Of a DNA stretch of 64,000 nucleotides, positions 4,069 to 20,061 are shown piece after piece; the first letter of the stretch is position 1, and every line of letters starts with the position of its first letter. The translations under genes were made by a program, and so were the position numbers. Source of the DNA: Burkholderiales bacterium (GTDB taxonomy: Bacteria > Pseudomonadota > Gammaproteobacteria > Burkholderiales > SG8-41). The stretch lies in contig JALHRQ010000003.1 in the NCBI GenBank assembly GCA_022841375.1, forward strand, positions 40,692-104,691. The letters are read 5' to 3'. The notes below the pieces were generated by a model. It was not told the DNA's origin. It did not search any database and saw nothing but the letters and a program-made list of their open reading frames with translations.

Positions 4069-4082
4069 GGCTGATTGCGTCC

Positions 4083-5567
4083 TTATCCCTGTGTGGCGGC
4101 TTTGCCCGCAGAGGTGCCCGCGAGCTTGCCGAATACCGCACCGGATACCAGACCAGTGCCGCTCGGGTAGTTGAAGTAGAACAGGCCGCCGACCATTTCA
4201 CCAGCGCAATACAAACCGGGGATCGGCAACTGGTTCGAATCGACGACCTGGCCGGAGTCTTTGTCGACGCGCAGGCCGCCGAAGGTGAAGGTGATGCCGC
4301 AGGTGGTGGCGTAGGCATCGTAGGGCGGGGCGTCGAGCGCCTGTGCCCAGTTCGATTTCGGCGGCTCGATGCCGACGGTGCCCTTGCCATCCTTGACCAC
4401 GTGATTGAACGGCACATCCTTTTGCACCGCGGCGTTGTACTCGTGCACGGTTTTGAGGAAAGCCTCGGGGTTGACGCCTTCCAGCTTGGTCGCCAGTTCT
4501 TCCAGCGTGTTGGCGCTGACCTTGGTCATGTATTTGATGCGGTATTCCGAACGCAGCAGCTTGGTGACTTTGGAGTCGAACACCTGCCACGCAAACTGGC
4601 CCGGCTGCTTGAGTACTTCACCACCATATTTGGCGTAGGTGAAGGAATGGAAATCGTAGCCTTCGTCGACAAAACGTTTGCCTTCGGCGTTGATCAGCAG
4701 GCCGAAGATGTAGCTGTGTTTCTGGAACTGGTCGCCGACATTGACGTCGCCGAATTCCGGCGCGTAGCGGTCCCAGCCGGTGGCGTGGCAGCCCGACCAG
4801 TTGCCGTAGGGCGCGGCACCGATGTCGAGTGCCATTTTCAGGCCGTCGCCGACGTTGAAGCGCGAACCGCGCACTTTCGCCAGTTCCCAGCCCGGACCGA
4901 GGTAGCGCGCGCGCATTTCGGGGTTGGCTTCGAAGCCGCCGCAGGCCAGCACCACGGCCTTGGCTTTCATCTCGAAGGACTTGCCCTTCTGCCGCACCTG
5001 CACGCCGCTGACCGTGGCGCCGTCGTAGAGCAGCTTGATCGCGCGGGTTTCGAAATGCACCGGGATGCCGGCTTTTTTGACGGCTTTGTCGAGGTACTGC
5101 ACCAGGCCGGCGCCGCCGCCGTGGGCTTCGATCGGCATATTGCCGAAGAATTTGCGTTTGCCGTCGACCACTGCCGACTGGCGTCCCCAGTTCGGCACGA
5201 ACTTCACGCCCTTTTCGCGCAGCCAGATCATCGTCGGAAGGCTCTCGTTGACCAGATACTCCGACAGGTCGGGATCGGTGCGGTAGGCGGTGAGCTGGTG
5301 GATCTTGTCGAGGAATTCCTCGCGGGTGTTGGTGCCGAAGTCGGTCTCGGCGATTTCCTGTTCGGTGATATCGGTGATTTTCAGCAGGTCTTCCACGGTT
5401 TCGTAGGCGAAGCGCATCACGCCGCCGGCAAAGCGGCTGTTGCCGCCGCCTTCATCTTCCGATGCGGCTTCAAGAATGGCGACGCGTGCGCCCTGGTCAT
5501 GGGCCGACAGCGCGGCGCACATGGCGGCGTTGCCTTTGCCGACGACGATTACATCATATTCCGACAT
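4083..5567 (-). CDS. FAD-binding dehydrogenase, tricarballylate dehydrogenase (TcuA)-like
   Basis: MSEYDVIVVGKGNAAMCAALSAHDQGARVAILEAASEDEGGGNSRFAGG, a Rossmann FAD motif in the fumarate-reductase/TcuA family style. Start set at ATG 5567 rather than the longest ORF start (5609). Confidence 0.75.
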   Translation of the reverse strand: MSEYDVIVVGKGNAAMCAALSAHDQGARVAILEAASEDEGGGNSRFAGGVMRFAYETVEDLLKITDITEQEIAETDFGTNTREEFLDKIHQLTAYRTDPDLSEYLVNESLPTMIWLREKGVKFVPNWGRQSAVVDGKRKFFGNMPIEAHGGGAGLVQYLDKAVKKAGIPVHFETRAIKLLYDGATVSGVQVRQKGKSFEMKAKAVVLACGGFEANPEMRARYLGPGWELAKVRGSRFNVGDGLKMALDIGAAPYGNWSGCHATGWDRYAPEFGDVNVGDQFQKHSYIFGLLINAEGKRFVDEGYDFHSFTYAKYGGEVLKQPGQFAWQVFDSKVTKLLRSEYRIKYMTKVSANTLEELATKLEGVNPEAFLKTVHEYNAAVQKDVPFNHVVKDGKGTVGIEPPKSNWAQALDAPPYDAYATTCGITFTFGGLRVDKDSGQVVDSNQLPIPGLYCAGEMVGGLFYFNYPSGTGLVSGAVFGKLAGTSAGKAATQG

Positions 5568-5725
5568 TTTCAGAGGCCTTTCAGTGTGCATGTTTGGGAC
5601 AGCCCACAATTATCCTTTCCTCACACTCTTGAGTAAAATGAGATTATTGCAACAATTGTTCGCAGTTTTGCATCAATAAGACGCATTAATAAACCAAGGC
5701 CGTTCGCCCTGAGCCCGCCGTTTCT

Positions 5726-5768
5726 CCCTCTCCCCATGCACTCATGGGGAGAGGGCGGGGGAGAGGGG
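5726..5768. repeat. REP-like palindrome (CCCTCTCCCCATG / CATGGGGAGAGGG) plus a third GGGGAGAGGGG copy
   Basis: Perfect 13-bp inverted repeat, 5726-5738 pairing with 5743-5755, 4-nt loop, followed by GGGGAGAGGGG. Lies in the divergent tcuA-like/lysR intergenic region. Confidence 0.7.
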
Positions 5769-5791
5769 CAACCCAAACTCATCTGCCCACC

Positions 5792-6730
5792 ATGAACATC
5801 GACACCCACGGCCTGCAGGCGTTTGCCCGCATTGCGGAACTCGGCAGCTTCCACCAGGCGGCGGAAGCCCTGCATCTGTCGCAGTCGGCGCTGTCGCGGC
5901 GCATCAGCAAACTGGAGGAGGAACTCGGCGTGCGTCTGCTCGACCGCACCACGCGCAAAGTGCGCCTGACCGCGGTCGGCCGCGACTTTCTGCCGCAGGC
6001 GCGGCGACTGATTGAGGAACTGGAAAATTCACTGGCCGGCCTGCGCGATATGGCCAAACGCGGCGCGGGCCAGGTGACGGTGGCCTGTGTGCCGACCGCG
6101 GCGATGCACATGCTGCCGCCGGTGATCCGCGATTACAGCGCCAAACATCCCGACAACCGCATCCGCATCCTGGATGTGCATGCCAACGAAGTGCTGCAGG
6201 CGGTGCTCGGCGGCGAAGCCGAGTTCGGGCTGACGCTCTCCGGCGCCGATACGCCGGAACTGGAAACCGAGGCCCTGTTCGAAGACCCCTTCGTGCTGGC
6301 CTGTCATCGCGACCATGCGCTGGCGAAAAAGAAAACGGTGAAATGGGCCGACCTGGAACAGCAGCGGGTCATCACTGTCGGGCGAATGAGCGGTAATCGC
6401 GCGCTGCTTGACTTCGGCTTGCCAGGCAACCTGCCGCAGCAGCGCTGGACTTATGAAGTGCAGCACTCGTTCTGGACCGGGCTGGGCATGGTTGAGGCGG
6501 GCATCGGTGTGATTGCGGTGCCAGCGCTGGCGCTGTCGGGGCGGCGCAATCCGCAACTGGTCAGCCGGCCGCTGGTGGAGCCGCGACTGACGCGCACGGT
6601 GGCGGTGATCCGGCGCCGCGGCGTGACGCTGTCGCCGGCGACGCAGGAGTTTCTGATGATGCTGAAAAAGCGTTGGGGGCAGTCGAAGCGGGAGGCGCGT
6701 CTGCGCAGTCAAGCGCAGCGAGCCCCATGA
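5792..6730 (+). CDS. LysR family transcriptional regulator
   Basis: MNIDTHGLQAFARIAELGSFHQAAEALHLSQSALSRRISKLEEELGVRLLDRTTRKV, an HTH_1 domain followed by a LysR substrate domain. Divergent from the catabolic genes. Confidence 0.9.
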   Translation: MNIDTHGLQAFARIAELGSFHQAAEALHLSQSALSRRISKLEEELGVRLLDRTTRKVRLTAVGRDFLPQARRLIEELENSLAGLRDMAKRGAGQVTVACVPTAAMHMLPPVIRDYSAKHPDNRIRILDVHANEVLQAVLGGEAEFGLTLSGADTPELETEALFEDPFVLACHRDHALAKKKTVKWADLEQQRVITVGRMSGNRALLDFGLPGNLPQQRWTYEVQHSFWTGLGMVEAGIGVIAVPALALSGRRNPQLVSRPLVEPRLTRTVAVIRRRGVTLSPATQEFLMMLKKRWGQSKREARLRSQAQRAP

Positions 6731-6840
6731 TTCCCGGCAGCTTGCCGGTTGTGGCAACGGCTGTTAGTCTCAAATGCAAGAATCAAAACCGCAAAAACAT
6801 TGTTGATTCAGTCCAATTGTCGGTACGAGGAGGGAGTGGA

Positions 6841-7833
6841 ATGACGGCATCAAGGGTTTCCAAAAAAGTAATTTCCCAAGTTCTGTTTGCAGGCGCGTTC
6901 ATCGCGGTATCGCACAGTGCTGTTGCACAGCAACCCGCTTATCCCGCAAAACCGATCCGCCTGATTGCCTCTCAGTCACCTGGCGGCGGCATTGATACGG
7001 TGGCGCGCATCGTGGCGACTCGGCTGGGTGATGCCATCGGACAGAACGTGATGGTCGACAACCGCGCCGGTGCCAACGGTTCGCTCGCCGGTGAACTGAC
7101 CGCAAAATCACCACCTGACGGTTATACGATGATGATCGGCGCGGTGGGGAACCTTGCGGTCAATGGCTTTTTCTCCAAGAACATGACCTATGATCCCCTG
7201 AAGGATCTGGCGCCGGTGACGCCTGCGGTGACCAGCGGCAACATTCTGGTGGTGCATCCTTCGGTACCGGCCAAATCGTTGAAGGAATTCCTGGCGCTTG
7301 CACGATCACGTCCGGCTGAACTGGCCTACGGTTCATCCGGCGTTGGTGGTTCCGGACATCTGGCGACGGGTTTGCTGCAGTCGATGGCCAAGATTAAGCT
7401 GCTGCATGTGCCATACAAGGGCAATGGCCCGGCAATCGTCAATCTGATGTCCGGCGAAGTGCAGATGGCTTTTGCGTCTCCGGCCAGCGTGGCTGCCAAT
7501 ATCCAGGCCGGCCGGTTGCGCGCGCTTGCGGTGGGGACCGGCACCCGCTCGAAGCAGTTTCCGCAGGTGCCGACCATTGCTGAAGCGGGTGTGGCGGGTT
7601 ATGAATCCAAAAGCTGGTACGGCTTTGTCGTTGCGGCGAAAACCCCGCCCGCGATCATTGCGCGGCTGAACAAGGAAATCGTGCAGGTCATCAATCGGCC
7701 CGAGGTCGTGGAATTGATGCTGACCCAAGGCGAAGCCTGGACCAGCAGTCCCGAAGCGTTTGCGGCCTTCATCAAGGTCGAACATGACAAGTGGGGGCGC
7801 GTGATCCGGGAGCAGGGCATCACTGCAAACTGA
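6841..7833 (+). CDS. Bug family tripartite tricarboxylate transporter substrate-binding protein (TctC-like)
   Basis: Signal peptide then YPAKPIRLIASQSPGGGIDTVARIVA...; GGAGGGAGTGGA precedes ATG 6841; C-terminal ...KWGRVIREQGITAN is typical of Bug proteins. Confidence 0.88.
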   Translation: MTASRVSKKVISQVLFAGAFIAVSHSAVAQQPAYPAKPIRLIASQSPGGGIDTVARIVATRLGDAIGQNVMVDNRAGANGSLAGELTAKSPPDGYTMMIGAVGNLAVNGFFSKNMTYDPLKDLAPVTPAVTSGNILVVHPSVPAKSLKEFLALARSRPAELAYGSSGVGGSGHLATGLLQSMAKIKLLHVPYKGNGPAIVNLMSGEVQMAFASPASVAANIQAGRLRALAVGTGTRSKQFPQVPTIAEAGVAGYESKSWYGFVVAAKTPPAIIARLNKEIVQVINRPEVVELMLTQGEAWTSSPEAFAAFIKVEHDKWGRVIREQGITAN

Positions 7834-7877
7834 GCGGTGAAGTGCGTGCCGATAAAACCGAATCAGGACATTCAGGC

Positions 7878-8735
7878 ATGTTGATCGTCGATTCGCAGGC
7901 GCATATCTGGGCGGCGAATACGCCGGAGCGTCCCTGGACGTTGAATGCCAAGCCGCATCTGCCGCAACCCTTCGGCGAGAAAGAACTGCTGCAGGAGATG
8001 AAAGCGGCCGGTGTTGACCGCGTGGTGATCGTGCCGCCGAGTCTTGATCGCACGCGTAATGACCTGGCGCTGGATGCAGCACAGTCGCATCCCGATTGTT
8101 TTGCGGTGATGGGCAAGATCAATCCGGCCTTGCCGGAGTCGCGAGGCATGATGGCAACTTGGCGCCGGCAAACGGGCATGCTCGGCCTTCGGTTCAATTT
8201 CAAAAAAAACATGGACCGGTTATCGAATCCGGAATATATGGCCTGGGTATGGGAAGAGGCCGAAGCGGCGGGTATCCCGCTTTACGTTGGCGTGGACCAT
8301 CCGGCAGTCAGGCTGGTTGATGCCGTGGCCGAGCGACATCCGCGACTACGCATCATCCTCGACCACATGGCTCTCGCCAGCGGCGCCAAGGATGATGAAG
8401 CTTTTCGTGATCTGGATATGCTGCTCGCCATTGCAAAGCGTCCGAACGTTGCAGTGAAGGTCAGTGCACTGCCCGGATATTCAACCGCACCCTATCCTTA
8501 CAGCAACCTGCATGGTTATGTGAAACGCGCGTATGACGCTTTCGGACCCCGACGATTGTTCTGGGGCAGCGACCTGACGCGGTTGAAATGCACTTACCGC
8601 CAGTGTGTGACCGTGTTTACCGAAGAAATGCCCTGGCTCACGGCCGATGATCTGGAACTGATCATGGGGCGTGCGCTGTGCGAATGGTTAGACTGGCCGG
8701 TCGAAGTGCAGTCCCGATCGGCGTCTGCCGCGTAG
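7878..8735 (+). CDS. Amidohydrolase-2 family protein (lactonase/decarboxylase-type metal hydrolase)
   Basis: MLIVDSQAHIW..., ...ILDHMA..., ...FWGSDLTR motifs typical of the COG3618/amidohydrolase_2 family. Confidence 0.75.
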   Translation: MLIVDSQAHIWAANTPERPWTLNAKPHLPQPFGEKELLQEMKAAGVDRVVIVPPSLDRTRNDLALDAAQSHPDCFAVMGKINPALPESRGMMATWRRQTGMLGLRFNFKKNMDRLSNPEYMAWVWEEAEAAGIPLYVGVDHPAVRLVDAVAERHPRLRIILDHMALASGAKDDEAFRDLDMLLAIAKRPNVAVKVSALPGYSTAPYPYSNLHGYVKRAYDAFGPRRLFWGSDLTRLKCTYRQCVTVFTEEMPWLTADDLELIMGRALCEWLDWPVEVQSRSASAA

Positions 8736-9527
8736 TTACACGCGTGCGCGCAGCGAACTGCCGGCGTCGATGGTGACCACGGTGCCGCTGATGTAGGAAG
8801 CGCGTGGCGACGCGAGGAAAGTCACCAGGTCCGAAACTTCCGCCGGGCGTCCCGCGCGGCCGAAGGGCAGTGAAGCGATGACCTTGGCTTGCAGTTCGGG
8901 CCAGCGTGATTCATCGCCGAATTGCTGCAAGGCTTGTTCCTTGAAGTGCCCGATCTGGCGTTCGGTTTCGATGCGTCCCGGATTCACGCCGACCACGCGG
9001 ATGCCGTGATCGACGCTTTCTGAGCCCAGCGCGCGGGTGAAGGCCATCAGTCCGGCATTGCCGGTGGTTCCGGTGATGTAGTTGGCGCGGTGGCGTTCGC
9101 CGGCGACGCCGATGATGTTGACGATGACGCCGGATTTGCGCTCGCGCATGCTCTTGTAGAGTTCTCGCGTCAGGTTGATGAAGCCGAACACCTTCAGGTC
9201 CCAGGCCTTGCGCCAGCGCTCATCGGTGATGTCCAGCAGATCGCCGCCGGGGATCGCGCCGGCGTTGTTGACCAGTATGTCGACGTCGGCGCAGGTTTTG
9301 CCGAGGGCCACGACATTTTCCGTCGTGCTCAGATCGACCGCATGGATGAAGACCTCGGTCTTGTACTGTTTCCGGATGGCTTCAGCCGCCGATTTCAGCG
9401 CGGATTCGTTGCGTGCGGCGAGATGGATAATCGCCCCTTCCGACGCGAAACCCTGCGCGCAGGCCAGGCCGAGTCCTTTGGAGGCGCCGGTAATCAAGAC
9501 TCTTTTGCCGCGAAGTTCCAGATCCAA
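8736..9527 (-). CDS. SDR family oxidoreductase
   Basis: LRGKRVLITGASKGLGLACAQGFASEGA (TGxxxGxG). The track ORF (to 10064) is over-extended. TTG at 9527 is preceded by AGGGGAAAC and gives a 263-aa SDR. Confidence 0.85.
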   Translation of the reverse strand: MDLELRGKRVLITGASKGLGLACAQGFASEGAIIHLAARNESALKSAAEAIRKQYKTEVFIHAVDLSTTENVVALGKTCADVDILVNNAGAIPGGDLLDITDERWRKAWDLKVFGFINLTRELYKSMRERKSGVIVNIIGVAGERHRANYITGTTGNAGLMAFTRALGSESVDHGIRVVGVNPGRIETERQIGHFKEQALQQFGDESRWPELQAKVIASLPFGRAGRPAEVSDLVTFLASPRASYISGTVVTIDAGSSLRARV

Positions 9528-9574
9528 GCTGTTTCCCCTGAGTGATTCGTTGTCGTGGCTGCGTAAATTAAGCG

Positions 9575-10960
9575 TTAAGCGGCAACCCGCTGCGGCCCGC
9601 CTTTGCCGGCAGCCAGTGCCGCGATTTCGCGAACGTCTTTCGCGTTCTCGAAATCCTGGATGGCCGCATAAAGCCGCGCCACGTTGTCGGTTGACAGTGC
9701 GCGCGCCGCGCAGTTGTCGAACTTGTCTTTGAGGCGGTCGGCGGGCAGCGGCTTGTCGACGCTGCGGCCCAGCGCCTGATCGGTTTTGGTACTGACGACA
9801 CGACCGTCGGTCAGCGTGACTTTCACTTCGGCGCCGAAGTGGTTGTCGGCAGGGAACTGTTCCGTGGTGTAGATGGAGGCGTGGATTTTCGGCAGCATGG
9901 CGCGAGTCGCCGGATCCTTCCAGTTGTCGCCTTCGAAATGTTCGAGCTTGACGGTGCGGTCTTTCAGCGCACGCGCCAGCGTGTATTGCACGCTGAACTT
10001 GGCGTCGAGGGAGGACTGCGGATCGGGACGGTTGGTGTGTTCGAGGCGGCGCGCGTGGGTCCATGATTCGATGCGCGCGACCTGTTCGGGTTTCAGGTTG
10101 TGTTTCTCGACGAGTTCGAGCATGCAGTCAATGGCCGGGTGGGTGCTGCCACAGCAGGGGTAGGACTTGATGGCGATACCGGGGCGGGTGATGTCCAGCG
10201 GCTTGGCCCAGGCGGGGATGGCTTTGGTGGCGTCGTAGTTGCCGGCGCCGTTGAAGACTTCGAAATAACCCTGCTTGTGTTCGAACGCGGTTGCGCCGGC
10301 AGTGAAGCCGTCGCGCGCGAGCAGCGCAGCGAACAGACCGCTGCGCGCGCAATGGCCGACATGCAGCGGCTTGGTCATGGTGCCGAAATTCGATTTGACG
10401 CCGGCGGCGAGCGATGCGGCGATTGACAGTGCAGTGGCGGTTTTTTCAACGGACAGTTTAAGCAGGTGCGCGCAGGCCGCGGCGCTGCCGAACACGCCGA
10501 TGGTCGTCGTCGGATGCCAGCCTTTGGTGTATTGGTAAAAATTCACCACCATCGACAGTTTGCATTCGGCTTCAAAGCCGGCGACGTAGGCCGCGATGAA
10601 ATCCTTGCCGGTGGCGCCGGTTTCATCGGCGAGCGCGAACAGCGCCGGCAGGATGGGCACCGAAGGATGACCGCCCAGCGTGTTGTTGCAGTCATCGAAG
10701 TCGAGTGCATGTGATGCGGTGCCGTTGACCAGCGCAGCGTCGAGCGCGCCGATGCGCCGTGCATGACCGAACACCAGCGACGGACCGCTGCTGGAGCCGG
10801 AAACGCCGAGCACAATGCGCGTTGCATCTTCTGCGGCGCCGGCAATCGTCACGCCGACGGTGTCGAGGATGCCGACTTTCGCCCAGTGCACGGCATCCGC
10901 CGGCAGGGTGCCGTACTGTAAGCCAATGATTTTATTTGATAATTCTGTGGCGAATGACAT
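9575..10960 (-). CDS. MmgE/PrpD family protein, paralogue 4
   Basis: 461-aa ORF: LQYGTLPADAVHWAKVGILDTVGVTIAGA..., full-length PrpD-like. Confidence 0.88.
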   Translation of the reverse strand: MSFATELSNKIIGLQYGTLPADAVHWAKVGILDTVGVTIAGAAEDATRIVLGVSGSSSGPSLVFGHARRIGALDAALVNGTASHALDFDDCNNTLGGHPSVPILPALFALADETGATGKDFIAAYVAGFEAECKLSMVVNFYQYTKGWHPTTTIGVFGSAAACAHLLKLSVEKTATALSIAASLAAGVKSNFGTMTKPLHVGHCARSGLFAALLARDGFTAGATAFEHKQGYFEVFNGAGNYDATKAIPAWAKPLDITRPGIAIKSYPCCGSTHPAIDCMLELVEKHNLKPEQVARIESWTHARRLEHTNRPDPQSSLDAKFSVQYTLARALKDRTVKLEHFEGDNWKDPATRAMLPKIHASIYTTEQFPADNHFGAEVKVTLTDGRVVSTKTDQALGRSVDKPLPADRLKDKFDNCAARALSTDNVARLYAAIQDFENAKDVREIAALAAGKGGPQRVAA

Positions 10961-11016: not shown

Positions 11017-11111
11017 TGGCGGAAGAGAGTGGGAGTCGAACCCACACAGGACCGCTCGCGGCCCCTACCGGGTTTGAAGTCCGGCCGCCCCACCGGGAGC
11101 GATTCCCTTCC
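11017..11111 (-). tRNA. selC: tRNA-Sec (UCA anticodon)
   Basis: Minus strand reads GGAAGGGAATCGCTCCCGGTGGGGCGGCCGGACTTCAAACCCGGTAGGGGCCGCGAGCGGTCCTGTGTGGGTTCGACTCCCACTCTCTTCCGCCA. It has an 8-bp acceptor stem, CU-UCA-AA anticodon loop, long extra arm, GGTTCGACTCC T-arm and encoded CCA, closely like E. coli selC. Confidence 0.95.
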
Positions 11112-11185
11112 GTTGTTACTGCGTGGCCGTCATTGTAAGGCGGCGCGATGCCGGCGAGAAATGCAGTTCCAGACTGTGGTGAAGC

Positions 11186-11734
11186 TCAAGGTCTGCGCGC
11201 GGCGCTGAGCACGACCGGTGTAATTTCTACGGTGCTGTCACCGTTGGTCATCCAGGTTGTGCCGTCCTGGATCGTGCATTGCAACTGCATCGTGCGTTCT
11301 GCGAGCTTTGCCAGCGCCTGAGTGGACTCGGCCGGCAAATCAATCACCGTGAGGTTGTCGGGCCGCGCCATTGCGTCGCTGTTGTCCTGCCACCATTTCG
11401 CAGCGCCGCGGCCATAAGTGTAGAGCTTCACCTGCGTCGCACGGCCGCAGGCCTTGCGTACGGATTTTTCATCGGGCAGGCCGATGTCGATCCACAGTTC
11501 AATGATGCCGGTGAGATCCTTGCGCTGCAGCGCAGGATCATCTTCGTTGCTCAGCCCTTTGCCGAATTCCAGCGCTTCATCGGCATTTAATGCGAATGCC
11601 AGCAACCGCACCATCATGCGTTCGTCGGTTTCGGAAGGATGGCGCGCCAGCACCAGCGCATGGGTCGCGTAATAGCCGCGGTCCATGTCGGAAATCGTCA
11701 GGTCCACCTTGAAGATGGTGGCGGTCAGCGCCAT
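11186..11734 (-). CDS. yaeQ: YaeQ family protein
   Basis: MALTATIFKVDLTISDMDRGYYATHALVLARHPSETDERMMVRLLAFAL is the characteristic YaeQ N-terminus. Start lies 4 nt after the upstream stop. Confidence 0.85.
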   Translation of the reverse strand: MALTATIFKVDLTISDMDRGYYATHALVLARHPSETDERMMVRLLAFALNADEALEFGKGLSNEDDPALQRKDLTGIIELWIDIGLPDEKSVRKACGRATQVKLYTYGRGAAKWWQDNSDAMARPDNLTVIDLPAESTQALAKLAERTMQLQCTIQDGTTWMTNGDSTVEITPVVLSAARRP

Positions 11735-11738
11735 GCGG

Positions 11739-12647
11739 TTATTTCAGACGCGCCGCTACTGCATCGGCAGCGCGATTCGCATCTGCAATCGCGTCATCAA
11801 GACTGCCGCCGCAGCCGCTGCGTACGGCACCGACGGCCCAGACGCCAGGCAGTGCGGTTTCGAGTGCGTCGCCGGTAACAAGGCGACCTTGGTCATCGCG
11901 TTTGACGGCATCCGGCACGAAAGCGGTGTTGGGTTCGAGGCCGATGTAGGTGAAAACGCCGGCGACGGCAATCTCTTCGCTGCCCGCTGCGGTTTTGACG
12001 CGGATTTTCTCGACCATCTGCCCGCCGAGGATGGCCTCGACCGTAGTGCCGAAACGTTTTTCGATCTTGTCGTTGCCTTTGACCTGGTCGATGAAACGCT
12101 GCTGCGCGCGGAACGCCATGCCGCGATGGATCAGCAGCACCTTGCCGCAATAGTGCGTCAGCACATTCGCTTCCTGCAGCGCGGAGTCACCGCCGCCGAT
12201 CACGGCCACGGTTTCATTCTGGAACATCGGGCCGTCGCAGTCGGCGCATTTCGACACGCCGCGGCCTTCGAATTCGGCTTCGCCGGGAACGTTCAGCGTT
12301 TTCAGTTTGGCGCCGCTGGCAATGATCACCTGGCGCGCGCGGTAGCTGCCGCTTTCGGTGGTCACGGTATAGCCGCCATCGGCGGTGGCCAGCGCGGTGA
12401 CCGGTTCCTGGATGCTGGTGACGCCGGCCTCGGCGTTGGCGCCGGTCAGTTCGGCGGCAAACGCCGCACCGCCGGCTTCGCCGCCGGGCGGCGCGGGGTC
12501 GAGTTCATTCACATTGAGCACGAGACCGCCGAAGATCTGCTGCTCGAAGGTGGCAGCGCTGAGGCCTTTTTTGGCGAGCGCACCGGCAGCGGTGAGTCCG
12601 GCGATACCTTCGCCGATGATGATGACGTCAAATGCGGAAGTGGTCAT
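11739..12647 (-). CDS. Thioredoxin-disulfide reductase-like FAD/NAD(P)H oxidoreductase (low-Mr TrxR architecture)
   Basis: DVIIIGEGIAGLTAAG (FAD), redox motif SKCADCDG (cf. CATCDG in TrxB), VAVIGGGDSALQEANVL...HRG (NAD(P)H). Lies 21 nt downstream of selB. Confidence 0.8.
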   Translation of the reverse strand: MTTSAFDVIIIGEGIAGLTAAGALAKKGLSAATFEQQIFGGLVLNVNELDPAPPGGEAGGAAFAAELTGANAEAGVTSIQEPVTALATADGGYTVTTESGSYRARQVIIASGAKLKTLNVPGEAEFEGRGVSKCADCDGPMFQNETVAVIGGGDSALQEANVLTHYCGKVLLIHRGMAFRAQQRFIDQVKGNDKIEKRFGTTVEAILGGQMVEKIRVKTAAGSEEIAVAGVFTYIGLEPNTAFVPDAVKRDDQGRLVTGDALETALPGVWAVGAVRSGCGGSLDDAIADANRAADAVAARLK

Positions 12648-12668
12648 GGCGTTCTCTCAGTTCAGTGA

Positions 12669-14690
12669 TCAGTAACGTTTGTTGCGGAAAGGGGGGCGTT
12701 GCTGTGGTTTTCCGGCGGCGGGTTTCTGCGCCTGTGGTTTGGCCACTGTGCCCGGTGGAGGCGGCGGCGCCGATTCGGCGGCACCGAGTATCGGCACAAA
12801 GTCCTTGCGAATCTTGCGCGCGTCGCCGATGCGTTGCGTCACAGTGATGCCATCCAGCGCTTCGAGAATTTCAATTGCCAGCGTGCGGCCGATGCCAACG
12901 GCGTCACGGTACTGCGCAGCGGTGAATTGGCCTTCGGGCTGTTTTGCTGCGACGGCCTGCGCGGTTGCTGCGAGCACCGCCATCGTCGGTTTCAGATAAA
13001 AACGTTCGGCACCGACCCGGTACAGATTGCCGGCCTTCATCTGCCGGTAGAGGAAATCCTTGAGGATCGCGTCCTTCAGTTTCAGCAGCGGCGCCAGTTC
13101 CTTCAGCGGCGGCGGATTGAATCCTGCCGAGAGCAGAGCCGGTTGTACGGTTTCCCACAGTTTGACGTCGGCGCTGTTGGCCGTAGTGTCATGGCCGGGC
13201 TTGCGCACCAGTGAGCTGTGCACTTCGATCTGCCGCTGATCCGCGAGCAGGCGCAGCAGGTGGCCGAAGGCGTCGGCATCGAGTTCCGGTGCCAGCGTCG
13301 CGTGCAGTGTTTCGATTTCCATGCCCGGCGCCTGCGGCTGCGCCTGGTGAAACGCGGCGACCTGTTTGACCGCCGCCTGATGCAGCGCGGCGAGTCGCGG
13401 TTGGGTGATGGCGATGCGGCGGTCCTTGCCCAGAGGTGAAAGACCGGCCTTGGTGTATGCGGCCGTGGCGATTTCAGGCAGCAGGTTGAAGATGGCTTCG
13501 AAGTGCGCCAGATCAACCGGACGTTTGCTATCGGCGGCGAGGGCGGCCAGTGCAGTGACGTGATCTGCCGATTCAAGCGCGGTGAGTGTGGCATCACGGG
13601 TCTTGCTGCGTCGTGAAGCCGGCGGCAAGGGGTCGATGATGACGCCGCCGCCGATTGTGCGTGTCGATGACTGGTCGCGCAGGATGAAGCGGTCGCCATG
13701 CAACGCCGCAATCGGTTCGTCGAGCACCAGCTGGCCGATGCCGCCCTGGCCTGGATTCAATGCTTCGCCGCGTTTCAGCGAGACCCGCGCGGTGACATCG
13801 GCGGTGGCGAGATGCAGGTGCACCGGCGTCCAATGTTTCAGCGGCTTGCCTTCGCCGGGCAGTACGTTCAGACGTACGTCGATGCGCTGTGTCGGGCGGT
13901 GGATGGCTTCGGCCATGACCCAGTCGCCGCGCCGAACCGATTCAACATCGGCGCCGGTCAGGTTCAGTGCGCAGCGTTCACCGGCGCGCGCTTCAGCAGC
14001 GGCTTTGCCGTGGATCTGGATGCCGCGCACGCGTACTTCGCGGCCTGCAGGGGAGATCACCAGCTTGTCGCCGCTGCGCACGGTGCCGTTGAACACGGTG
14101 CCGGTGACCACGGTGCCGCTGCCGGCAATGCTGAAGGCGCGGTCAATGGCGTAACGCAGATGCTGCCCGGCGGCGCTGCGCTGGCCTTTGGCCGCGGCTT
14201 CGCGCAGCAGCAGGGTTTTCAGTTCGGTCATGCCGGCACCGCTGATGGCGGACACCGGCAGTATCGGCACTTCGGCAAGCAGCGTCGGTGCGAGCAGGGC
14301 CTGCACCTGGTTGCGCACCTGTTCGATGCGTTCGGCGTCGACGCGATCGACCTTGGTGATCACCGCGGCGCCGCGACCGATGCGCAGCAGATCCAGGATC
14401 TGCAGATGTTCGATAGTCTGTGGCATCACGCCGTCGTCGGCGGCGACGATCAGCATTGCAAAGTCGATGCCGGATACGCCGGCGAGCATGTTGCGGATGA
14501 AACGCTCATGGCCCGGTACATCGACAAAACCGATCAGTCCGCCTTCGGCCAGCGGCAGGTAGGCAAAACCGAGATCGATCGAGATGCCGCGGGCTTTTTC
14601 CTCGGGCAGACGGTCGGTGTCGGTGCCGGTCAGCGTTTTGACCAGCAAAGTCTTGCCGTGATCGATGTGGCCTGCGGTAGCGACGATCAT
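12669..14690 (-). CDS. selB: Selenocysteine-specific translation elongation factor SelB
   Basis: [44 protein letters not shown]..., a GTPase followed by winged-helix domains. 673 aa, with an extra Pro/Lys/Gln-rich tail. Confidence 0.93.
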
Positions 14691-14705
14691 AAAGTCAAAG
14701 GCATT

Positions 14706-14815
14706 GAGCCACAGAAGACACAGAGTTCACAGAGAGAATAATCAAAAGCCATTCGATGCTCTCGTGATAACTGTTCTCAGGGTTTCTCTGCGCTCTCTGT
14801 GTCCTCTGTGGCTAA
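14706..14815. repeat. Imperfect ~30-bp inverted repeat (REP-like) filling the selA-selB spacer
   Basis: Left arm GAGCCACAGAAGACACAGAGTTCACAGAGAGAA (14706-14738); right arm TTTCTCTGCGCTCTCTGTGTCCTCTGTGGCTAA (14783-14815). The 19-nt core AGCCACAGA(A/G)GACACAGAG is complementary with one mismatch. Confidence 0.7.
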
Positions 14816-16218
14816 GGTTTTTTGATCTTGAGATTTGCAAGTTGCGTTACAAACTCGTCTTCATGATCGAGGCAGCGCAGGTCAAGCATCAGCGCACCGT
14901 CCTTGATATGGCCGATCACCGGCGAGGGCAGTGCGCGGAGCGCTGCGGCGAGTTTGTTGAGGTTGCCTTTTTTTCCGGCGGGCATGATGGCCAGGCCGCT
15001 GCTGGGCAGCGCATCCACCGGCAGCGCGCCGCTGCCGATCTGGCTTTTGCAGGCGGCGATTTCAACGGTCCAGTCTTCACCCAGTGCTGCGGCGACCGCA
15101 GGCAGCACGCGTGCTGCCTGCGCGGCAATGTCGTCGGCATTACGGGTCAGCAAACGCAGCGCCGGCAGTTCTTCGTGCAGGCGTTCCGGGTGCAGGTACA
15201 GGCGCAGCACGGCATCCAGCGCGGTCAGCGTCAGCTTGTCGAGGCGCAGCGCGCGTTTCATCGGATTTTTGGCGATGCGCGCCATCAGATCCTTGCGGCC
15301 GACCAGCAGGCCTGCCTGCGGGCCGCCAAGCAGTTTGTCGCCACTGAAGGTCACCACATCGGCGCCGTCGGCGAGTGTCTCTCGCGGCGTCGGTTCATGC
15401 GGCAAGCCGTAGTCCTCGAGATTGATCAGCGTGCCGCTGCCGAGGTCGACGATGAAGGGCAGGTTGTGTGCGTGCGCAAGTTTCGCCAATTCACTTTCAG
15501 GCACCGTTGCGGTGAAGCCCTGCACCACGTAATTGCTGGTGTGCACTTTCATGATCGCCGCGGTGCGCGGCGTGATCGCTTCGGCAAAATCTTTGAGGTG
15601 CGTGCGGTTGGTAGTGCCGACCTCGACCAGTTTGACGCCGGCGCGCGACATGATGTCGGGAATGCGGAACGCGCCGCCGATTTCGATCAGTTCGCCGCGC
15701 GATACCAGCACTTCACGCTTCAACGCCAGCGTATTCAGCGCGAGGTAGACTGCGGCGGCGTTGTTGTTGACGGCGACGGCTTTCTCGCCGCCCGTCAGTT
15801 CGGCGAGCCAGCGTTCGACATGGCTGTCGCGTTCGCCGCGGGCGCCGGTCGCAAGATCAAATTCCAGATTGACCGGACGGGTCATCGCCGCCATCACGGC
15901 TTCGGCAGCGCTTTGCGGCATCACCGCGCGGCCGAGATTGGTGTGCAACACGGTGCCGGTGAGATTAAATACCGGTTTCAGCGAGGGTGCGGCGGATCGC
16001 TCCAGCGCAACAGCGCAGGCCTGCAGGAAACGGATTTCATCAAAGGCGCCGGCTTCAGGCTCGGCCAGACGAGCACGCTCAGCGTCCAGTGCGCAGCGCA
16101 GGAATTCGGTTACGCGCGTGCGGCCATACGCGGCAATGAGGACCGCGACTGCCTCGCTGCCGAGCAGGCGATCAACCGAGGGCAACGCGCGACGCGCGGC
16201 TGCAGCGGGATTCACCAT
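14812..16218 (-). CDS. selA: L-seryl-tRNA(Sec) selenium transferase SelA
   Basis: 468 aa: LPSVDRLL...NLTGTVLHTNLGRA...FSGDKLLGGPQAG, typical SelA. Confidence 0.93.
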   Translation of the reverse strand: MVNPAAAARRALPSVDRLLGSEAVAVLIAAYGRTRVTEFLRCALDAERARLAEPEAGAFDEIRFLQACAVALERSAAPSLKPVFNLTGTVLHTNLGRAVMPQSAAEAVMAAMTRPVNLEFDLATGARGERDSHVERWLAELTGGEKAVAVNNNAAAVYLALNTLALKREVLVSRGELIEIGGAFRIPDIMSRAGVKLVEVGTTNRTHLKDFAEAITPRTAAIMKVHTSNYVVQGFTATVPESELAKLAHAHNLPFIVDLGSGTLINLEDYGLPHEPTPRETLADGADVVTFSGDKLLGGPQAGLLVGRKDLMARIAKNPMKRALRLDKLTLTALDAVLRLYLHPERLHEELPALRLLTRNADDIAAQAARVLPAVAAALGEDWTVEIAACKSQIGSGALPVDALPSSGLAIMPAGKKGNLNKLAAALRALPSPVIGHIKDGALMLDLRCLDHEDEFVTQLANLKIKKP

Positions 16219-16361
16219 CGGGATGCGGAGATGCGGCAGGTCATGCGGATTGCCAGTGTGGAAAGCGGAGGGCGCAGTTTAGCGTAACTCGCAGGGTGCG
16301 TGCTATTCTGGCCGCGGCTCGCAAGCGCGGGCGCAAAACAGCCGGATTCCGGGGAGAAAAC

Positions 16362-17330
16362 ATGAACATGCGCGTAATGATGGGGGTGCTGTTGCTGGCT
16401 GCAGGTGTTGCACAGGCGGCAGATGCGCCGTATCCGACCAAGCCGATACGATTTATTTGTCCCTATGCCCCGGGCGGGGCTGGCGATATTTTTACGCGCA
16501 CCATAGGCCAGAAACTGAGTGAGGCGCTGGGTCAGGCCGTGGTGGTGGACAACCGCGGCGGCGCCAATGGCGGTATCGGTACCGAACTGGTGGCGCGTGC
16601 GCCGGCCGACGGATACACGCTGCTGATGGGCAATGCCGGGCCGATGACCGTCAATCCGAATCTGTATCTCAAAATGGGTTATGACCCGGTCAAGGATTTT
16701 GCGCCGATCACCCAGGGCACCTCATACATGTACGTGCTGGTGGTGCCGCCCGCAGCGCCGGTGAAGGCGCTGCCGGATTTCATCAAGCTGTTGCAGTCAA
16801 AGCCGGGGCAGATGACCTACGGCTCGACCGGCATCGGCGGCGGCAATCACCTGTCGGGCGAACTGTTCAGCCTGATGACCAACACCAAGTCGATTCATGT
16901 GCCGTACACCGGGAGCTCGCTGGCACTGGCGGCGTTGCTCGGCGGACAGATCAGTTACATGTTCGATACCGTGATTACCGCGGTGCCGCAGTTGCGCGGC
17001 GGCAAACTGCGCGCGATTGGCGTCACCGGCGGCAAACGCGCTTCGGCTTTGCCCGACGTGCCTACACTCAACGAACTGGGTCTGAAGGGATTTCAACTGA
17101 CGCAGTGGCAGGCGGTGGTTGCGCCGGCAGGCACGCCGAAACCGGTGATCGACCGCCTGAACCGTGAAGTGGTGAAAGCGCTGAAAATGCCGGATGTCAT
17201 TGACCGGCTGGCGACACAGGGCGGCAACGATCTCGTCGGCAACACGCCGGAAGAGTTTGCGCAGGTGATCAAAAGCGATCTCGCGCTCTACGCCAAAATC
17301 ATCAAGGCTGCGGGGATCAAGCCGCAGTAG
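16362..17330 (+). CDS. Bug family tripartite tricarboxylate transporter substrate-binding protein
   Basis: MNMRVMMGVLLLAAGVAQA signal peptide, YPTKPIRFICPYAPGGAGDIFTR, C-terminal YAKIIKAAGIKPQ; GGGGAGAAAAC precedes the ATG. Confidence 0.88.
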   Translation: MNMRVMMGVLLLAAGVAQAADAPYPTKPIRFICPYAPGGAGDIFTRTIGQKLSEALGQAVVVDNRGGANGGIGTELVARAPADGYTLLMGNAGPMTVNPNLYLKMGYDPVKDFAPITQGTSYMYVLVVPPAAPVKALPDFIKLLQSKPGQMTYGSTGIGGGNHLSGELFSLMTNTKSIHVPYTGSSLALAALLGGQISYMFDTVITAVPQLRGGKLRAIGVTGGKRASALPDVPTLNELGLKGFQLTQWQAVVAPAGTPKPVIDRLNREVVKALKMPDVIDRLATQGGNDLVGNTPEEFAQVIKSDLALYAKIIKAAGIKPQ

Positions 17331-17349: not shown

Positions 17350-17382
17350 AAAAACGCCGGCATCATCGATGCCGGTGTTTTA
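17350..17382. terminator. Bidirectional intrinsic terminator between convergent genes
   Basis: AAAAA-CGCCGGCATC-ATC-GATGCCGGTG-TTTT: a GC-rich stem flanked by an A-run and a T-run. Confidence 0.7.
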
Positions 17383-17406: not shown

Positions 17407-18177
17407 CTATTCCCATAGCCGTTCGGGCAGCGGCAAACCGGCCAGCTGTTCGGGCGTCAGCGGCTGATCCGGCGTGATGCCGATGTTTTCCAGTACGGCG
17501 GCGAGCTGGCGTGCATGCTGCGCGCTGTGCCAGGTTGAACGCTCGTAAAGCATATAAATGGGCTGCATGCCGAAGAAGGTCTTGATCTTCTGCTCGCAGG
17601 ATTTGTCTTCGAGCTTGTTCCACCAGTTTTCCAGCCGTGCAATCACGGTGTCGCCGTAACGCGCGATTTCCTCGCCGGTCATGAAGGTGCCGTCTTTCGG
17701 CGGCACGTTGGCCAACTGCACTGCATATTCGACGCCGCCCTCTACGGACTCCAGGTAGGCCTCGCCGATGCGGAAGATGTGGTGGCACATCAAGCGGATC
17801 GAGCGGTCGCGGTTGGGAATGACGCGTTCCAGGAGTTTTGCGTCGGGTAACTGGCGCATCAAACGTTGTGCGGCGCGCAGCACCATGATCCAGCGCTTGA
17901 TCAGTTCGTCCGGGGGCAGCGGCTTGTGCCCGGTGCCCTGAAGGCCGACAAACTCGGCGACATCTTCCAGGTTTTGTCCAAAGACAAACTGTTCGCCCTT
18001 GGCGACAACAGGGACATTGCGCACACCGAACTTAAGCAGGCGTTCGCGTCCCGCCGGATCGTTCAGAACGTCGATGGCGATGAAATCAATTTTTTTACGC
18101 GAAAGAAACTCTTTCGCCCGGAGACAACTGCTTCAGCCCGGTTGGGTAAACAGAATGAACTGTTCGTCGGCGCCCAT
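17407..18177 (-). CDS. Candidate selenoprotein: glutaredoxin/NrdH-like domain (U-S-S-C motif, Sec at codon 15, TGA 18133-18135) fused to a DinB/YfiT-like domain
   Basis: Same frame as track ORF 17407..18024, open upstream to the TGA. ATG at 18177 has AAGAGG 7 nt upstream. Product: MGADEQFILFTQPG-U-SSCLRAKEFLSRKKIDFIAIDVLNDPAGRERLLKFGVRNVPVVAKGEQFVFGQNL..., then ...HHIFRIGE...ERSTWHSAQHARQL. A hairpin follows the TGA, and selABC are adjacent. Confidence 0.7.
18099..18117 (-). promoter_or_regulatory. Candidate bacterial SECIS hairpin
   Basis: mRNA GCGAAAG-AGUUU-CUUUCGC: 7-bp perfect stem (8 bp with a 3-nt loop), G/U in the apical loop. The stem starts 15 nt 3' of the UGA. Confidence 0.5.
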
Positions 18178-18303: not shown

Positions 18304-18909
18304 ATGATGAAGTTGATCGGGACTGTCACCAGTCCCTACACCCGAAAGGTGCGCGTAGTTCTTGGTGAGAAGCGCATGGAATGCGAGTTCATCACGGACA
18401 CACCGAACACGCCGGACAGCGCGGTGACCCGTTATAACCCGCTGGGAAAAATCCCGGTGCTGGTGCTCGATGACGAGAATACGATTTTTGACTCACGGGT
18501 AATTGTCGAGCATCTGGACAATGCGAGTCCCGGCAACCGGTTGATACCCGAGGAAAAACGCCCGCGCATCCAGGTGCGGCGCTGGGAGGCGCTGGCCGAC
18601 GGATGCACGGATGCCGCGATTGCCCTGGTCAACGAAAAACGCAAACCCGCGGAGCAGCAATCATCGGAGTGGATCATCCGGCAACAGGGCAAGGTCGATC
18701 GTTCGCTGCAGGCGATGGCGGACGAACTCGCGGCCAAACCGTGGTGCGCGGGTGATTTTTTCACGCTCGCCGATATTGCGGTCGGCTGTTGCCTGGGCTG
18801 GCTGGAATTGCGCGTGCCCGATCTGCCATGGCGGCGTAATCACCCGAATCTGGCGCGGCTTGCCGACAAACTGGCACAACGCCCGTCCTTCAAAGACTCG
18901 GCGCCCTGA
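18304..18909 (+). CDS. Glutathione S-transferase, YibF-like
   Basis: MMKLIGTVTSPYTRKVRVVLGEKRMECEFI...YNPLGKIPVLVLDDENTIFDSRVIVEHLD... aligns by eye along its whole length with E. coli YibF. Confidence 0.85.
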   Translation: MMKLIGTVTSPYTRKVRVVLGEKRMECEFITDTPNTPDSAVTRYNPLGKIPVLVLDDENTIFDSRVIVEHLDNASPGNRLIPEEKRPRIQVRRWEALADGCTDAAIALVNEKRKPAEQQSSEWIIRQQGKVDRSLQAMADELAAKPWCAGDFFTLADIAVGCCLGWLELRVPDLPWRRNHPNLARLADKLAQRPSFKDSAP

Positions 18910-20061
18910 TCAACGGTTGCCGGCGATGGCGTCCGGCGGACATTCGTCGTCGAACGACAGCGCAGGTGGCGCAGGGCGTGCAGTTTCAATGATGCCGCCG
19001 CCGATGCAGACGCGGCTCTCGTAAATCACCACCGACTGTCCGGGCGTCACCGCCCACTGATTTTCGGCGAAATCGACGATGCAACGCCCGTTTGAGGCCT
19101 CTTCCATCGAACACGCGGCATCGCGCTGGCGGTAGCGTGTCTTCGCGCTGTAAACCCATTGTGTATGCGGCGGTTCGCCGCTGATCCAGTTGACATTGAC
19201 CGCGGTGAGCTGGTCGGCCAGCAGCAACGGGTGGTCGTGCCCCTGCACCACGATCAGCCGGTTGTTGGTCATGTCCTTTTGTGAGACATACCAGGCGTCT
19301 CCGTCGCCGTCGCGGGTGCCACCGATGCCCAGTCCCTGACGCTGGCCCAGCGTGTAGAACGTCAGTCCCATGTGGCGGCCGACCTGGCGGCCTTCCGGGG
19401 TGACAATGTCGCCCGGATTGGCCGGCAAATAGCGGTTGAGAAATTCGCGGAACGGCCGCTCGCCGATGAAGCAGATTCCGGTCGAATCCTTTTTGTCGTG
19501 ATTGGGCAGGCCTTCCCGGCGCGCGATTTCGCGCACGTCGCGCTTGTAGAGGCCGCCCAGCGGAAACCAGGTTTTGGCGAGCTGCTGCTGGTTAAGGCGG
19601 TAGAGAAAATAACTCTGATCCTTGGTGCCGTCCTCCGCCTTCAGCAACTGGTGGAGACCGTCGACCTCGCGCACCTCGGCGTAATGTCCCGTGGCGATGC
19701 GGTCGGCGCCGAGATTCATTGCATGGTCAAGGAAGGCCTTGAATTTGATTTCGGCATTGCACAGCACGTCGGGGTTGGGCGTGCGTCCGGCCTGGTACTC
19801 GCTGAGGAATTCGCTGAACACGCGATCCTTGTATTCAGCGCTGAAGTTGACGGCCTCGATGTCGATGCCGATGCGATCGGCAACAGCAACGGCGTCAATC
19901 AGGTCCTGGCGCGAAGTGCAGTGCTCGTCGGTGTCGTCATCTTCCCAATTCTTCATGAACAGGCCGATCACTTCATGCCCCTGCTGCTTGAGCAGCAGCG
20001 CGGCGACCGAGGAATCCACGCCCCCCGAAAGACCAATGACAATTTTCTGTTTGCGCGCCAT
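18910..20061 (-). CDS. mnmA: tRNA 2-thiouridine(34) synthase MnmA
   Basis: [38 protein letters not shown]... PP-loop; full length. Confidence 0.95.

Follow-up and report, generated by a model that had tools for sequence, protein, structure and literature searches.

Clusters in which selA, selB and selC are accompanied by a neighbouring fdhA gene have been described in Alpha- and Betaproteobacteria and in Pseudomonadales (Zhang et al. 2006, PMC1794560). We analysed a cluster of this general type in a 64,000-nt stretch of contig JALHRQ010000003.1 from an uncultured freshwater Burkholderiales bacterium (the whole stretch is hereafter called the window), in which selA, selB, a gene for a thioredoxin reductase (TrxR)-like flavoprotein (TrxRl), yaeQ and the selenocysteine (Sec) tRNA gene selC follow one another on the minus strand. 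Like the clusters described earlier, it carries selA, selB and selC on one strand and in the same order, with a selenoprotein gene adjacent and selD elsewhere. Unlike in those clusters, the selenoprotein is not a formate dehydrogenase (FDH) but a glutaredoxin (Grx)-like domain joined to a DinB-type domain (Grx-DinB), with UGSC proteins found in relatives, and TrxRl is fixed between selB and selC. We propose, and give this about an even chance of being right, that the cluster forms a compact selenoprotein island and that the flavoprotein embedded in it serves to recycle selenoproteins with a UxxC motif (U being Sec).

Flavoproteins of the TrxR fold that work together with a Grx-like partner are known from the TrxR-NrdH pair of Escherichia coli, from Cp34-Cp9 of Clostridium pasteurianum (YruB family) and from AhpF, where the C-terminal half is paired with the N-terminal domain. 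The window shares with these systems a low-Mr TrxR-fold flavoprotein with a CxxC centre and a partner domain of the Grx fold. It differs from them in that Sec comes first in the motif of the partner, which is moreover fused to a DinB/YfiT domain, in that the reductase lies in a Sec-decoding operon, and in that the interaction is a postulated one. The DinB/YfiT thiol S-transferases and isomerases (YfiT/BstA, mycothiol S-transferase, maleylpyruvate isomerase) appear from structural modelling to have their fold in common with the second domain of the window protein, which unlike them carries a Sec-containing Grx-like domain. UGSC (seleno)proteins, which also have a UxxC motif, were abundant in non-marine aquatic samples of the Global Ocean Sampling survey (PMC2398784). 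Finally, the yibF-selA-selB arrangement of E. coli resembles the window in having a glutathione S-transferase (GST) gene beside selAB; in the window this gene is divergent from the selenoprotein gene and lies about 2 kb from selA.

A Sec-decoding gene cluster without linked FDH or selD

The window encodes SelA, SelB and a tRNA-Sec with a UCA anticodon, which belong to the bacterial Sec-decoding gene set of selA, selB, selC and selD (positions and scores are listed in Table 1). SelB was found to contain the GTP_EFTU, beta-barrel and winged-helix 2 and 3 domains (PF25461, PF09106, PF09107). As read from open reading frame (ORF) coordinates and the sequence itself, selA is followed after 121 nt by selB, then after 21 nt by TrxRl, after 4 nt by yaeQ and after 74 nt by tRNA-Sec; the gene order, positions and four spacers given in an earlier reading of this DNA (the original prediction) were exact to the base. 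In an Rfam scan of the region only tRNA-Sec was reported. Neither SelD nor a molybdopterin FDH was present in a Pfam survey of nearly all window genes above 110 aa (two short ORFs, 53946-54350 and 63191-63601, excepted), and tblastn with E. coli SelD and FdhF as queries matched neither the 64 kb of the window nor any of the 160 loci introduced below. The earlier statement that neither FDH nor selD is linked to the cluster thus holds for the window and for these loci.

For comparison, 160 related loci were used. Eighty genome loci (L001-L080) came from a scan of one genome per species; all are metagenome-assembled genomes (MAGs) of Betaproteobacteria/Burkholderiales, with TrxRl identities from 95% to 55%. 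The 80 further metagenome loci came from a scan seeded with more distant TrxRl representatives. All evidence presented here is comparative and derives from MAG contigs of related organisms, and the counts are not phylogenetically independent. Homologues of TrxRl number in the thousands, the closest 120 being 77-95% identical and from uncultured Burkholderiales; the closest of all (95% identity) belongs to a Burkholderiales MAG from Lake Mendota-type samples. Throughout L001-L080 TrxRl was directly preceded by selA-selB and had tRNA-Sec downstream wherever the contig was long enough. Since the arrangement recurs in about 100 related loci, it is far beyond chance. The flanks of the island are fluid: in the genome loci selA and selB may overlap by 4 nt or lie up to 204 nt apart, between 18 nt and over 4 kb separate TrxRl from tRNA-Sec, and Grx-DinB ends 44 nt to 5 kb before selA.

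TrxRl belongs to a distinct clade that is linked to the Sec genes

The top relatives of TrxRl in the PDB are low-Mr TrxRs (5uwy, E = 5e-50), yet its 223.9 bits do not reach the cutoff of 343.45 of the TrxB equivalog model TIGR01292. Its flavin adenine dinucleotide (FAD) motif G12-E-G-I-A-G17 and its redox centre CADC (C134-A-D-C137) are invariant in the clade, throughout which GxGxxG, CADC and GGGDSA are retained. The canonical C-terminal FAD motif AAGD...YRQ is replaced across the clade by A(V/A)GAVRxGxGG (AVGAVRSGCGG instead of AAGD in the window), whereas the canonical TrxRs of the same sample retain the GD motif. In addition, the substrate-side loop reads CADCDGP(M/L)F (CADCDGPMF in the window) as opposed to CATCDGFF in E. 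coli. A search of 1.8 billion cluster representatives showed identities declining gradually from 62% to the 35-40% that ordinary TrxRs have, and in a neighbour-joining tree the CADC clade joined clades with CAWC and CASC centres, apart from the canonical CATC/CAVC TrxRs.

This clade was closely tied to the Sec genes. TrxRl begins 3-22 nt past the selB stop in 63/75 genome loci, over the identity range of 95%-55%, and the independent metagenome sample showed the same selB-TrxRl pattern down to approximately 46% identity. When members of the CADC/GAVR class (43-100% identity) were compared with all other TrxR-like proteins, selB or tRNA-Sec lay within 6 kb in 93/97 loci of the former and in 1/61 of the latter (Fisher p = 1.6e-37, a value that ignores phylogeny). 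Two of the four exceptions are on contigs shorter than 2 kb and one is UGSC-linked. As judged from the sequences compared, TrxRl is a constant member of the Sec cluster and represents a distinct clade, not canonical TrxB, which agrees with the original proposal that the TrxR-like gene belongs with selB.

The linkage might reflect nothing but inherited synteny, TrxRl being a housekeeping TrxR or a general redox paralogue. Such an explanation would fit the origin of all Sec-linked loci from related uncultured Betaproteobacteria, the wide occurrence of MnmA and a PrpD-like gene as further neighbours in the same loci, and the complete TrxR-type fold and CxxC centre that TrxRl retains. We nevertheless regard it as improbable, given that TctC, UGSC, YaeQ and other ORFs have repeatedly invaded the flanking junctions while the selB-TrxRl distance stays at 3-22 nt, that TrxRl scores 224 bits against the TrxB equivalog cutoff of 343 and has no canonical GD motif, and that its sister clades are independently and significantly linked to UxxC/CxxC UGSC proteins, as described further below.

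In a separate observation, the 3.3-Mb MAG record CP070703.1 (L164) seemed to show a decayed selB with TrxRl outliving the Sec genes. This was rejected, as selB is cut by a 100-N scaffold gap (approximately 9227-9326). A gap of this kind, which mimics a decayed selB, can mislead automated analyses of Sec-trait loss.

Grx-DinB is a conserved selenoprotein

The Grx-DinB gene had been put forward as the nearest selenoprotein candidate, and the comparison bore this out. Its in-frame TGA is retained in 55/55 loci that span the N-terminus, and the protein is conserved on both sides of it (64-96% identity). A hairpin core of 17 nt (CGAAAGA-GUU-UCUUUCG), which begins 16 nt past the UGA, is identical in the same 55/55 loci; covariation is impossible to see in a core without variation. 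Codons 22-26 (AAA GAG TTT CTT TCG) are each represented by a single codon in 49/49 Grx-DinB sequences, whereas the other conserved residues of codons 8-45 (TGA aside) use 2-6 synonymous codons each in these 49 sequences. The invariance of synonymous sites in codons 22-26 therefore points to a constraint at the RNA level, that is, to a Sec insertion sequence (SECIS). By these comparative measures, the gene encodes a real, conserved selenoprotein that is tied to the Sec cluster.

The N-terminal part of the protein is a glutaredoxin/NrdH-like domain with the motif U15-S-S-C18, behind which lies a four-helix-bundle domain of the DinB/YfiT type. When U was replaced by C, residues 8-65 matched PF00462 with 48.5 bits (cutoff 22.9, E = 1e-12), and the second domain matched DinB_2 (PF12867) with 29.5-32.9 bits (cutoff 24.8). 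U15, C18, H84, H132, H133, H217 and H221 are invariant in the 57 full-length sequences that could be aligned. A PDB sequence search with the DinB part yielded no relative. In an AF2 model of a truncated homologue, predicted local distance difference test (pLDDT) values exceed 85 in most of the DinB domain and lie below 60 in the partial Grx part. With this model, Foldseek gave 6iz2 (DR0053; E = 2e-4, TMt 0.85) and also 1rxq (YfiT), 2nsf, 8f5v and 5wk0, the matches of the DinB part including mycothiol-dependent maleylpyruvate isomerase and the mycothiol and bacillithiol S-transferases.

The best NCBIfam matches of the Sec domain were YruB and NrdH redoxins and 'Uxx-star' selenoproteins; because all of them remained below cutoff, no curated family covers Grx-DinB. 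Homologues in the database carry the annotation "DinB family protein" and are cut short. Since each of the best 120 out of 3238 homologues is a gene call of 192-238 aa that starts past the TGA, the family is systematically mis-annotated. A full-length Cys form was absent from the same best 120 of 3238. A combination of DinB with selenoproteins was not found in the literature searched, two recent selenoproteome reviews included and Haft & Tolstoy 2025 (mSystems) lying outside the coverage, and Grx-DinB is apparently an undescribed candidate for a new selenoprotein family.

In 26/55 loci Grx-DinB and selA share a strand, with 44-370 nt from the Grx-DinB stop to selA and nothing in between. From these loci it follows that the compact form of the island consists of Grx-DinB, selA, selB, TrxRl and selC, and the plus-strand TctC gene that separates Grx-DinB from selA in the window is an insertion outside the module. 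Terminator-like sites occur at chance level in this region, and the call of the terminator-like hairpin behind Grx-DinB is one of position only.

UGSC-family genes provide a second link between TrxR-like proteins and UxxC selenoproteins

Genes of the UGSC family stand beside the Sec cluster in approximately 20 genome loci, often divergent from selA, where the window has TctC. They encode a PF24696/NF041046-like N-domain followed by a C-domain of about 350 aa, and their U position is TGA in 32 cases and TGC in 2. We found them next to selA or tRNA-Sec in L040, L045, L047, L050, L056, L059, L060, L064, L066, L069, L070, L071, L085, L094 and L097. A UxxC selenoprotein gene is present in 50/51 loci with at least 3 kb of sequence upstream of selA. 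The window itself has no member of the family according to tblastn with the UGSC protein of L094 as query, and Grx-DinB has no match to PF24696 or NF041046. In relatives, UGSC genes have this TrxR-like superclade and the selAB cluster as neighbours.

UGSC genes were also encountered next to TrxR-like genes without selB (L103, L106, L116, L119, L121, L137 and L143-L145). In the CAWC, CASC and CAAC clades and a few non-Sec CADC members, 9/19 had UGSC-family neighbours, with selB absent nearby, versus 0/45 of the canonical TrxRs (p = 3e-6). Two of these neighbours, in L137 and L145, are Cys forms. The order in L116 and L119 is UGSC, a gene like the UGSC C-domain, and the TrxR-like gene, with gaps of at most 13 nt. 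Because the sister clades are linked to UGSC in this way, the deeper association of the TrxR-like superclade is with UxxC/CxxC redox proteins, and the CADC branch would, from its gene neighbourhoods, have become fixed inside the selAB-selC cluster. A broader proposal is that the TrxR paralogues with CAxC and GAVRxGxGG motifs are a dedicated electron donor for UxxC selenoproteins, among them Grx-DinB and the UGSC family, which is very abundant in fresh water, and that one Burkholderiales lineage has embedded this donor in its selA-selB-selC operon. We advance it tentatively, as a generalisation that could well prove wrong.

Locus L094 is instructive in that it has two TrxRl copies. The copy after selB (11532-12437, minus strand) contains an internal TAG (GRDA*SLIV), and the other, 5 kb away, is intact and follows a Sec-containing UGSC gene and a GST-like gene on a single strand. 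A Sec codon inside the first copy was rejected, since the stop is TAG; this copy is probably a pseudogene or the product of a sequencing error.

These neighbourhoods also bear on the main competing function for TrxRl, namely that it serves Sec biosynthesis by reducing selenite, selenodiglutathione or protein-bound selenotrisulfides to selenide for SelD, with the YibF GST possibly forming or handling adducts of glutathione (GSH) and selenium. TrxRl indeed lies within the selAB operon and not beside the selenoprotein gene (3-22 nt from selB in 63/75 loci), and it is kept where Grx-DinB is not nearby (L034, L064, L097). According to one report, the thioredoxin system reduces selenite and TrxA matters for selenoprotein synthesis in E. 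coli (PMC8538045), and such a role in selenite assimilation would be in line with selenide supply, as would the position of yibF next to selAB in E. coli and the YibF orthologue in the cluster of the window. Nonetheless, selD, whose product consumes selenide, occurs in 0/160 loci and not in the window; the sister clades are linked to UGSC proteins, Cys forms among them, without Sec machinery; and in L094 it is the selB-side copy that has the internal TAG and the UGSC/GST-side copy that is intact. Furthermore, most Sec-using bacteria do without such a gene, and none was reported in the surveys of selenium-linked neighbours (PMC5322559) or in a study on how the Sec trait evolved (PMC1794560). 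We therefore consider a role of TrxRl in selenide supply rather unlikely.

YaeQ is a passenger

YaeQ was confined to L001-L035, where TrxRl identity is at least 70%, and to L088. It is missing from 45/80 genome loci (L036-L080), in which tRNA-Sec typically lies 18-230 nt past TrxRl. Where yaeQ is present, it directly follows TrxRl in 11/34 loci and is about 580-930 nt away in the other 23/34; in the loci inspected (L010, L015, L032) the intervening stretch is occupied by an ORF of 194-216 aa on the opposite strand, and in many yaeQ-bearing loci an opposite-strand TctC gene separates yaeQ from tRNA-Sec. The 4-nt TrxRl-yaeQ junction was seen only in the window and six of its closest relatives, L002-L007, the corresponding distance in L001 being 9 nt. 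Membership of yaeQ in the module was rejected on account of its patchy presence and the intervening opposite-strand ORF, and by its distribution among the loci yaeQ is a passenger gene, probably co-transcribed with TrxRl in the window only.

The original prediction had counted yaeQ as part of the Sec-decoding operon, and a stronger version would make TrxRl and YaeQ a functional pair that is translationally coupled with selB and serves Sec decoding. Such a pair would agree with the 4-nt spacing, which the window has in common with six of the seven relatives closest to it, and with the lack of a convincing terminator between the two genes. We give it hardly any chance, as YaeQ is missing from 45/80 genome loci and from all of the more distant Sec-linked metagenome loci except L088, the two genes are about 580-930 nt apart in 23/34 loci, and TctC often stands between YaeQ and tRNA-Sec. 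When the neighbourhoods of selB are compared across relatives, which was the check proposed with the original prediction, TrxRl and Grx-DinB track selB and yaeQ does not. The self-contained module that had been envisaged, with decoding machinery, redox selenoprotein, reductase and GST, holds up as a conserved neighbourhood, to which yaeQ does not belong.

A long hairpin at the selA-selB junction and the likely transcription units

The 121-nt spacer between selA and selB is not a plain intergenic gap, an interpretation that was rejected because it holds a long hairpin element. The 107-nt hairpin has a folding energy of -56.6 kcal/mol (z = -6.6), and 0/200 shuffled sequences were as stable. Its arms are composed of repeats of approximately 9 nt of the CACAGAG type, and the TAG stop of selA lies inside it. 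There is a single copy in the window, and blastn of the hairpin against 1.2 Mb of loci gave matches solely at the selA-selB junction. In the closest relatives (L001-L007) the hairpin is absent and selA and selB overlap by 4 nt (ATGA). Hairpins that are either homologous or analogous, 70-204 nt in length, occupy this junction in about 20 other loci, including L010, L014-L018, L025, L029, L031, L035, L046, L050, L053, L055, L059, L060 and L063. Their arms consist of tandem motifs of 7-9 nt that are specific to clades (CCACAGAGGACACAGAG, ACCGCAGAGGCGCAGAGG or GTGACTCGTGAC), with complementarity kept and with A-U to G-C double changes in the arms between clades. The possibility that the hairpin mimics a SelB-binding SECIS was rejected, because its apical region is unconserved and bears no resemblance to the Grx-DinB SECIS. 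The element may serve as a stabiliser or decoupler between the cistrons, or it may be a site-specific palindromic mobile element.

Most of the 84 loci with a tRNA-Sec have a box reading TTACAAT or TACAAT, preceded by TTTCnCG and with variable flanks, approximately 20-45 nt before the tRNA gene. In the window, the TTCTCG -35 box of this motif matches 3/6 consensus positions, and a consensus scan did not report the motif. With a promoter-like motif upstream of it, selC need not belong to the mRNA, and the conservation of the motif points to separate transcription of selC. No convincing terminator was found by a terminator scan of the interior of selA-selB-TrxRl-yaeQ. The 21-nt and 4-nt spacings had originally been taken to imply co-transcription, and probably translational coupling, of TrxRl and yaeQ with selB. 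For TrxRl the conserved spacing is in keeping with co-transcription; the 4-nt TrxRl-yaeQ spacing exists only in the window and six relatives.

Other genes of the island and of the window

The GST gene next to Grx-DinB, described from the start as YibF-like, scores above the cutoff of the YibF-type model, and its full-length alignment with E. coli YibF (200 aa, E = 1e-47) shows 38% identity; homology supports M37, at 18307, as its probable true start. A YibF-type GST gene is divergent from and adjoins Grx-DinB in 35/52 loci. In E. coli K-12 (L081, NC_000913.3, 3758017-3761955), selA is preceded by yibF at a distance of 97 nt, both genes being on one strand. A link between GST and Sec genes thus recurs across classes, in yibF-selA of E. 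coli, in the betaproteobacterial island and in the UGSC-GST-TrxRl order of L094.

Table 1. Features of the Sec island and its surroundings in the window (aa, amino acids).
Feature	Position	Strand	Basis or remark
selC, tRNA-Sec, anticodon UCA (TCA in DNA)	11017-11111	minus	ARAGORN; Rfam RF01852 75.9 bits, gathering score 47
Promoter-like motif TTCTCG-17 nt-TACAAT	11132-11160	minus	20 nt upstream of tRNA-Sec
yaeQ, 182 aa	11186-11734	minus	PF07152 254.8 bits, profile positions 1-172 of 173
TrxR-like gene (TrxRl), 302 aa	11739-12647	minus	Pyr_redox_2 E = 7e-34; TIGR01292 223.9 bits
selB, Sec-specific elongation factor, 673 aa	12669-14690	minus	TIGR00475 421.6 bits, cutoff 242
Long hairpin, 107 nt, in selA-selB spacer	14707-14813	minus	RNA fold
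selA, L-seryl-tRNA(Sec) selenium transferase, 468 aa	14812-16218	minus	TIGR00474 577.2 bits, cutoff 268; PF03841 531 bits
TctC-family solute receptor	16296-17330	plus	PF03401 233 bits
Terminator-like hairpin (8-bp stem + T run)	17357-17375	minus	32 nt past Grx-DinB stop
Grx-DinB selenoprotein gene, 256 aa	17407-18177	minus	single in-frame TGA at 18135-18133, context QPG-U-SSC
SECIS hairpin G-CGAAAGA-GUU-UCUUUCG-C	18099-18117	minus	fold and conservation; in Grx-DinB gene
YibF-type GST	18307-18909 (ORF opens 18199)	plus	NF007682 188.6 bits, cutoff 181

MnmA (window 18910-20061, minus) is a conserved outer neighbour of the island and occurs in 51/55 loci with Grx-DinB. MnmA is a tRNA 2-thiouridine synthase, and its product is the precursor of 2-selenouridine; its neighbourhood to the island may be mere synteny. 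On the other side, many relatives have conserved a PrpD-like gene as the neighbour of tRNA-Sec. The window has three MmgE/PrpD-family paralogues (1173-2591, 2656-4068 and 9575-10960) with a TctC receptor among them (6673-7833), and this region (1173-10960) also holds a LysR regulator, an FAD oxidoreductase, an amidohydrolase and a short-chain dehydrogenase/reductase.

Sulfur genes are located approximately 11 kb from the Sec island (29128-31748), comprising the flavoprotein of a flavocytochrome-c sulfide dehydrogenase (29128-30399, plus), a DUF2784 gene (30500-30877, minus) and a double-rhodanese sulfurtransferase (30900-31748, minus). A 710-aa protein (36325-38457, minus) combines a VTT/DedA-type membrane domain with a class-I pyridine-nucleotide-disulfide oxidoreductase that is MerA- or glutathione reductase-like and has the dimerisation domain; DedA proteins have been linked to selenite uptake. 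A chromate-resistance unit (50462-52730, minus) consists of ChrB (51835-52644), with a chrB-b RNA (RF03086, 55.5 bits) upstream of it, and ChrA (50462-51817). No Pfam family was found at E <= 1e-8 for the ORFs 23909-25285 (minus), 39443-40915 (minus), 61418-63190 (plus) and 34-699 (plus), whose G+C content at third codon positions is coding-like; ORF 39443-40915 has a weak match to SSF symporters.

A proposed electron route from TrxRl to UxxC selenoproteins

The ancestral core of the island was probably Grx-DinB(Sec), selA, selB, TrxRl and tRNA-Sec, often with a divergent YibF-type GST gene. From this core the window departs by the inserted TctC gene, by the palindromic element between selA and selB and by yaeQ between TrxRl and selC. 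In the proposed mechanism, selA, selB, TrxRl and, where present, yaeQ would be expressed as one transcript and selC from its own promoter. Electrons would pass from NAD(P)H to the FAD of TrxRl and on to its CADC disulfide (C134/C137), which would then reduce the U15-C18 selenenylsulfide of the NrdH/YruB-like domain in Grx-DinB; in related genomes TrxRl would likewise reduce the UxxC centre of UGSC-family selenoproteins. The reduced Sec domain would in turn act on the putative His-triad metal site of the DinB/YfiT-like, thiol-transferase-type domain. With the recycler encoded within the selAB operon, its level would be coupled to the capacity of the cell to make selenoproteins. Redoxins of the YruB and NrdH types depend on TrxR and not on GSH, and because the Sec domain matches these redoxins best (below cutoff), a recycler of the TrxR type is favoured.

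Several points speak against recycling by TrxRl. Its interaction with Grx-DinB is a presumed one, and TrxRl would be co-transcribed with selB, while the selenoprotein gene has a promoter region and a terminator-like hairpin of its own. L034 has the cluster and no UxxC selenoprotein gene within 6.5 kb upstream, and L097 and L064 are without a nearby Grx-DinB, though both have UGSC genes. The Sec-linked loci all belong to one broad lineage, in which conserved synteny alone could inflate the counts. Moreover, linkage to UGSC proteins does not by itself make TrxRl their reductase.

Proteobacterial Sec clusters are thought to travel with formate dehydrogenase, and the lineage of environmental Betaproteobacteria described here, with approximately 100 loci, departs from this with a different selenoprotein and a private reductase. 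The selA-selB-selC type of cluster with a selenoprotein neighbour is known; the window is set apart by a companion other than FDH, by the specialised TrxR paralogue in the cluster and by the Grx-DinB family, which appears to be undescribed. The UGSC proteins, a major selenoprotein family, gain a candidate redox partner, and the question of YibF, a GST that stands beside selAB in E. coli too, is reopened. If recycling of UxxC selenoproteins by TrxRl holds true, decoding machinery, selenoenzyme and recycler would travel and be expressed as one FDH-free island.

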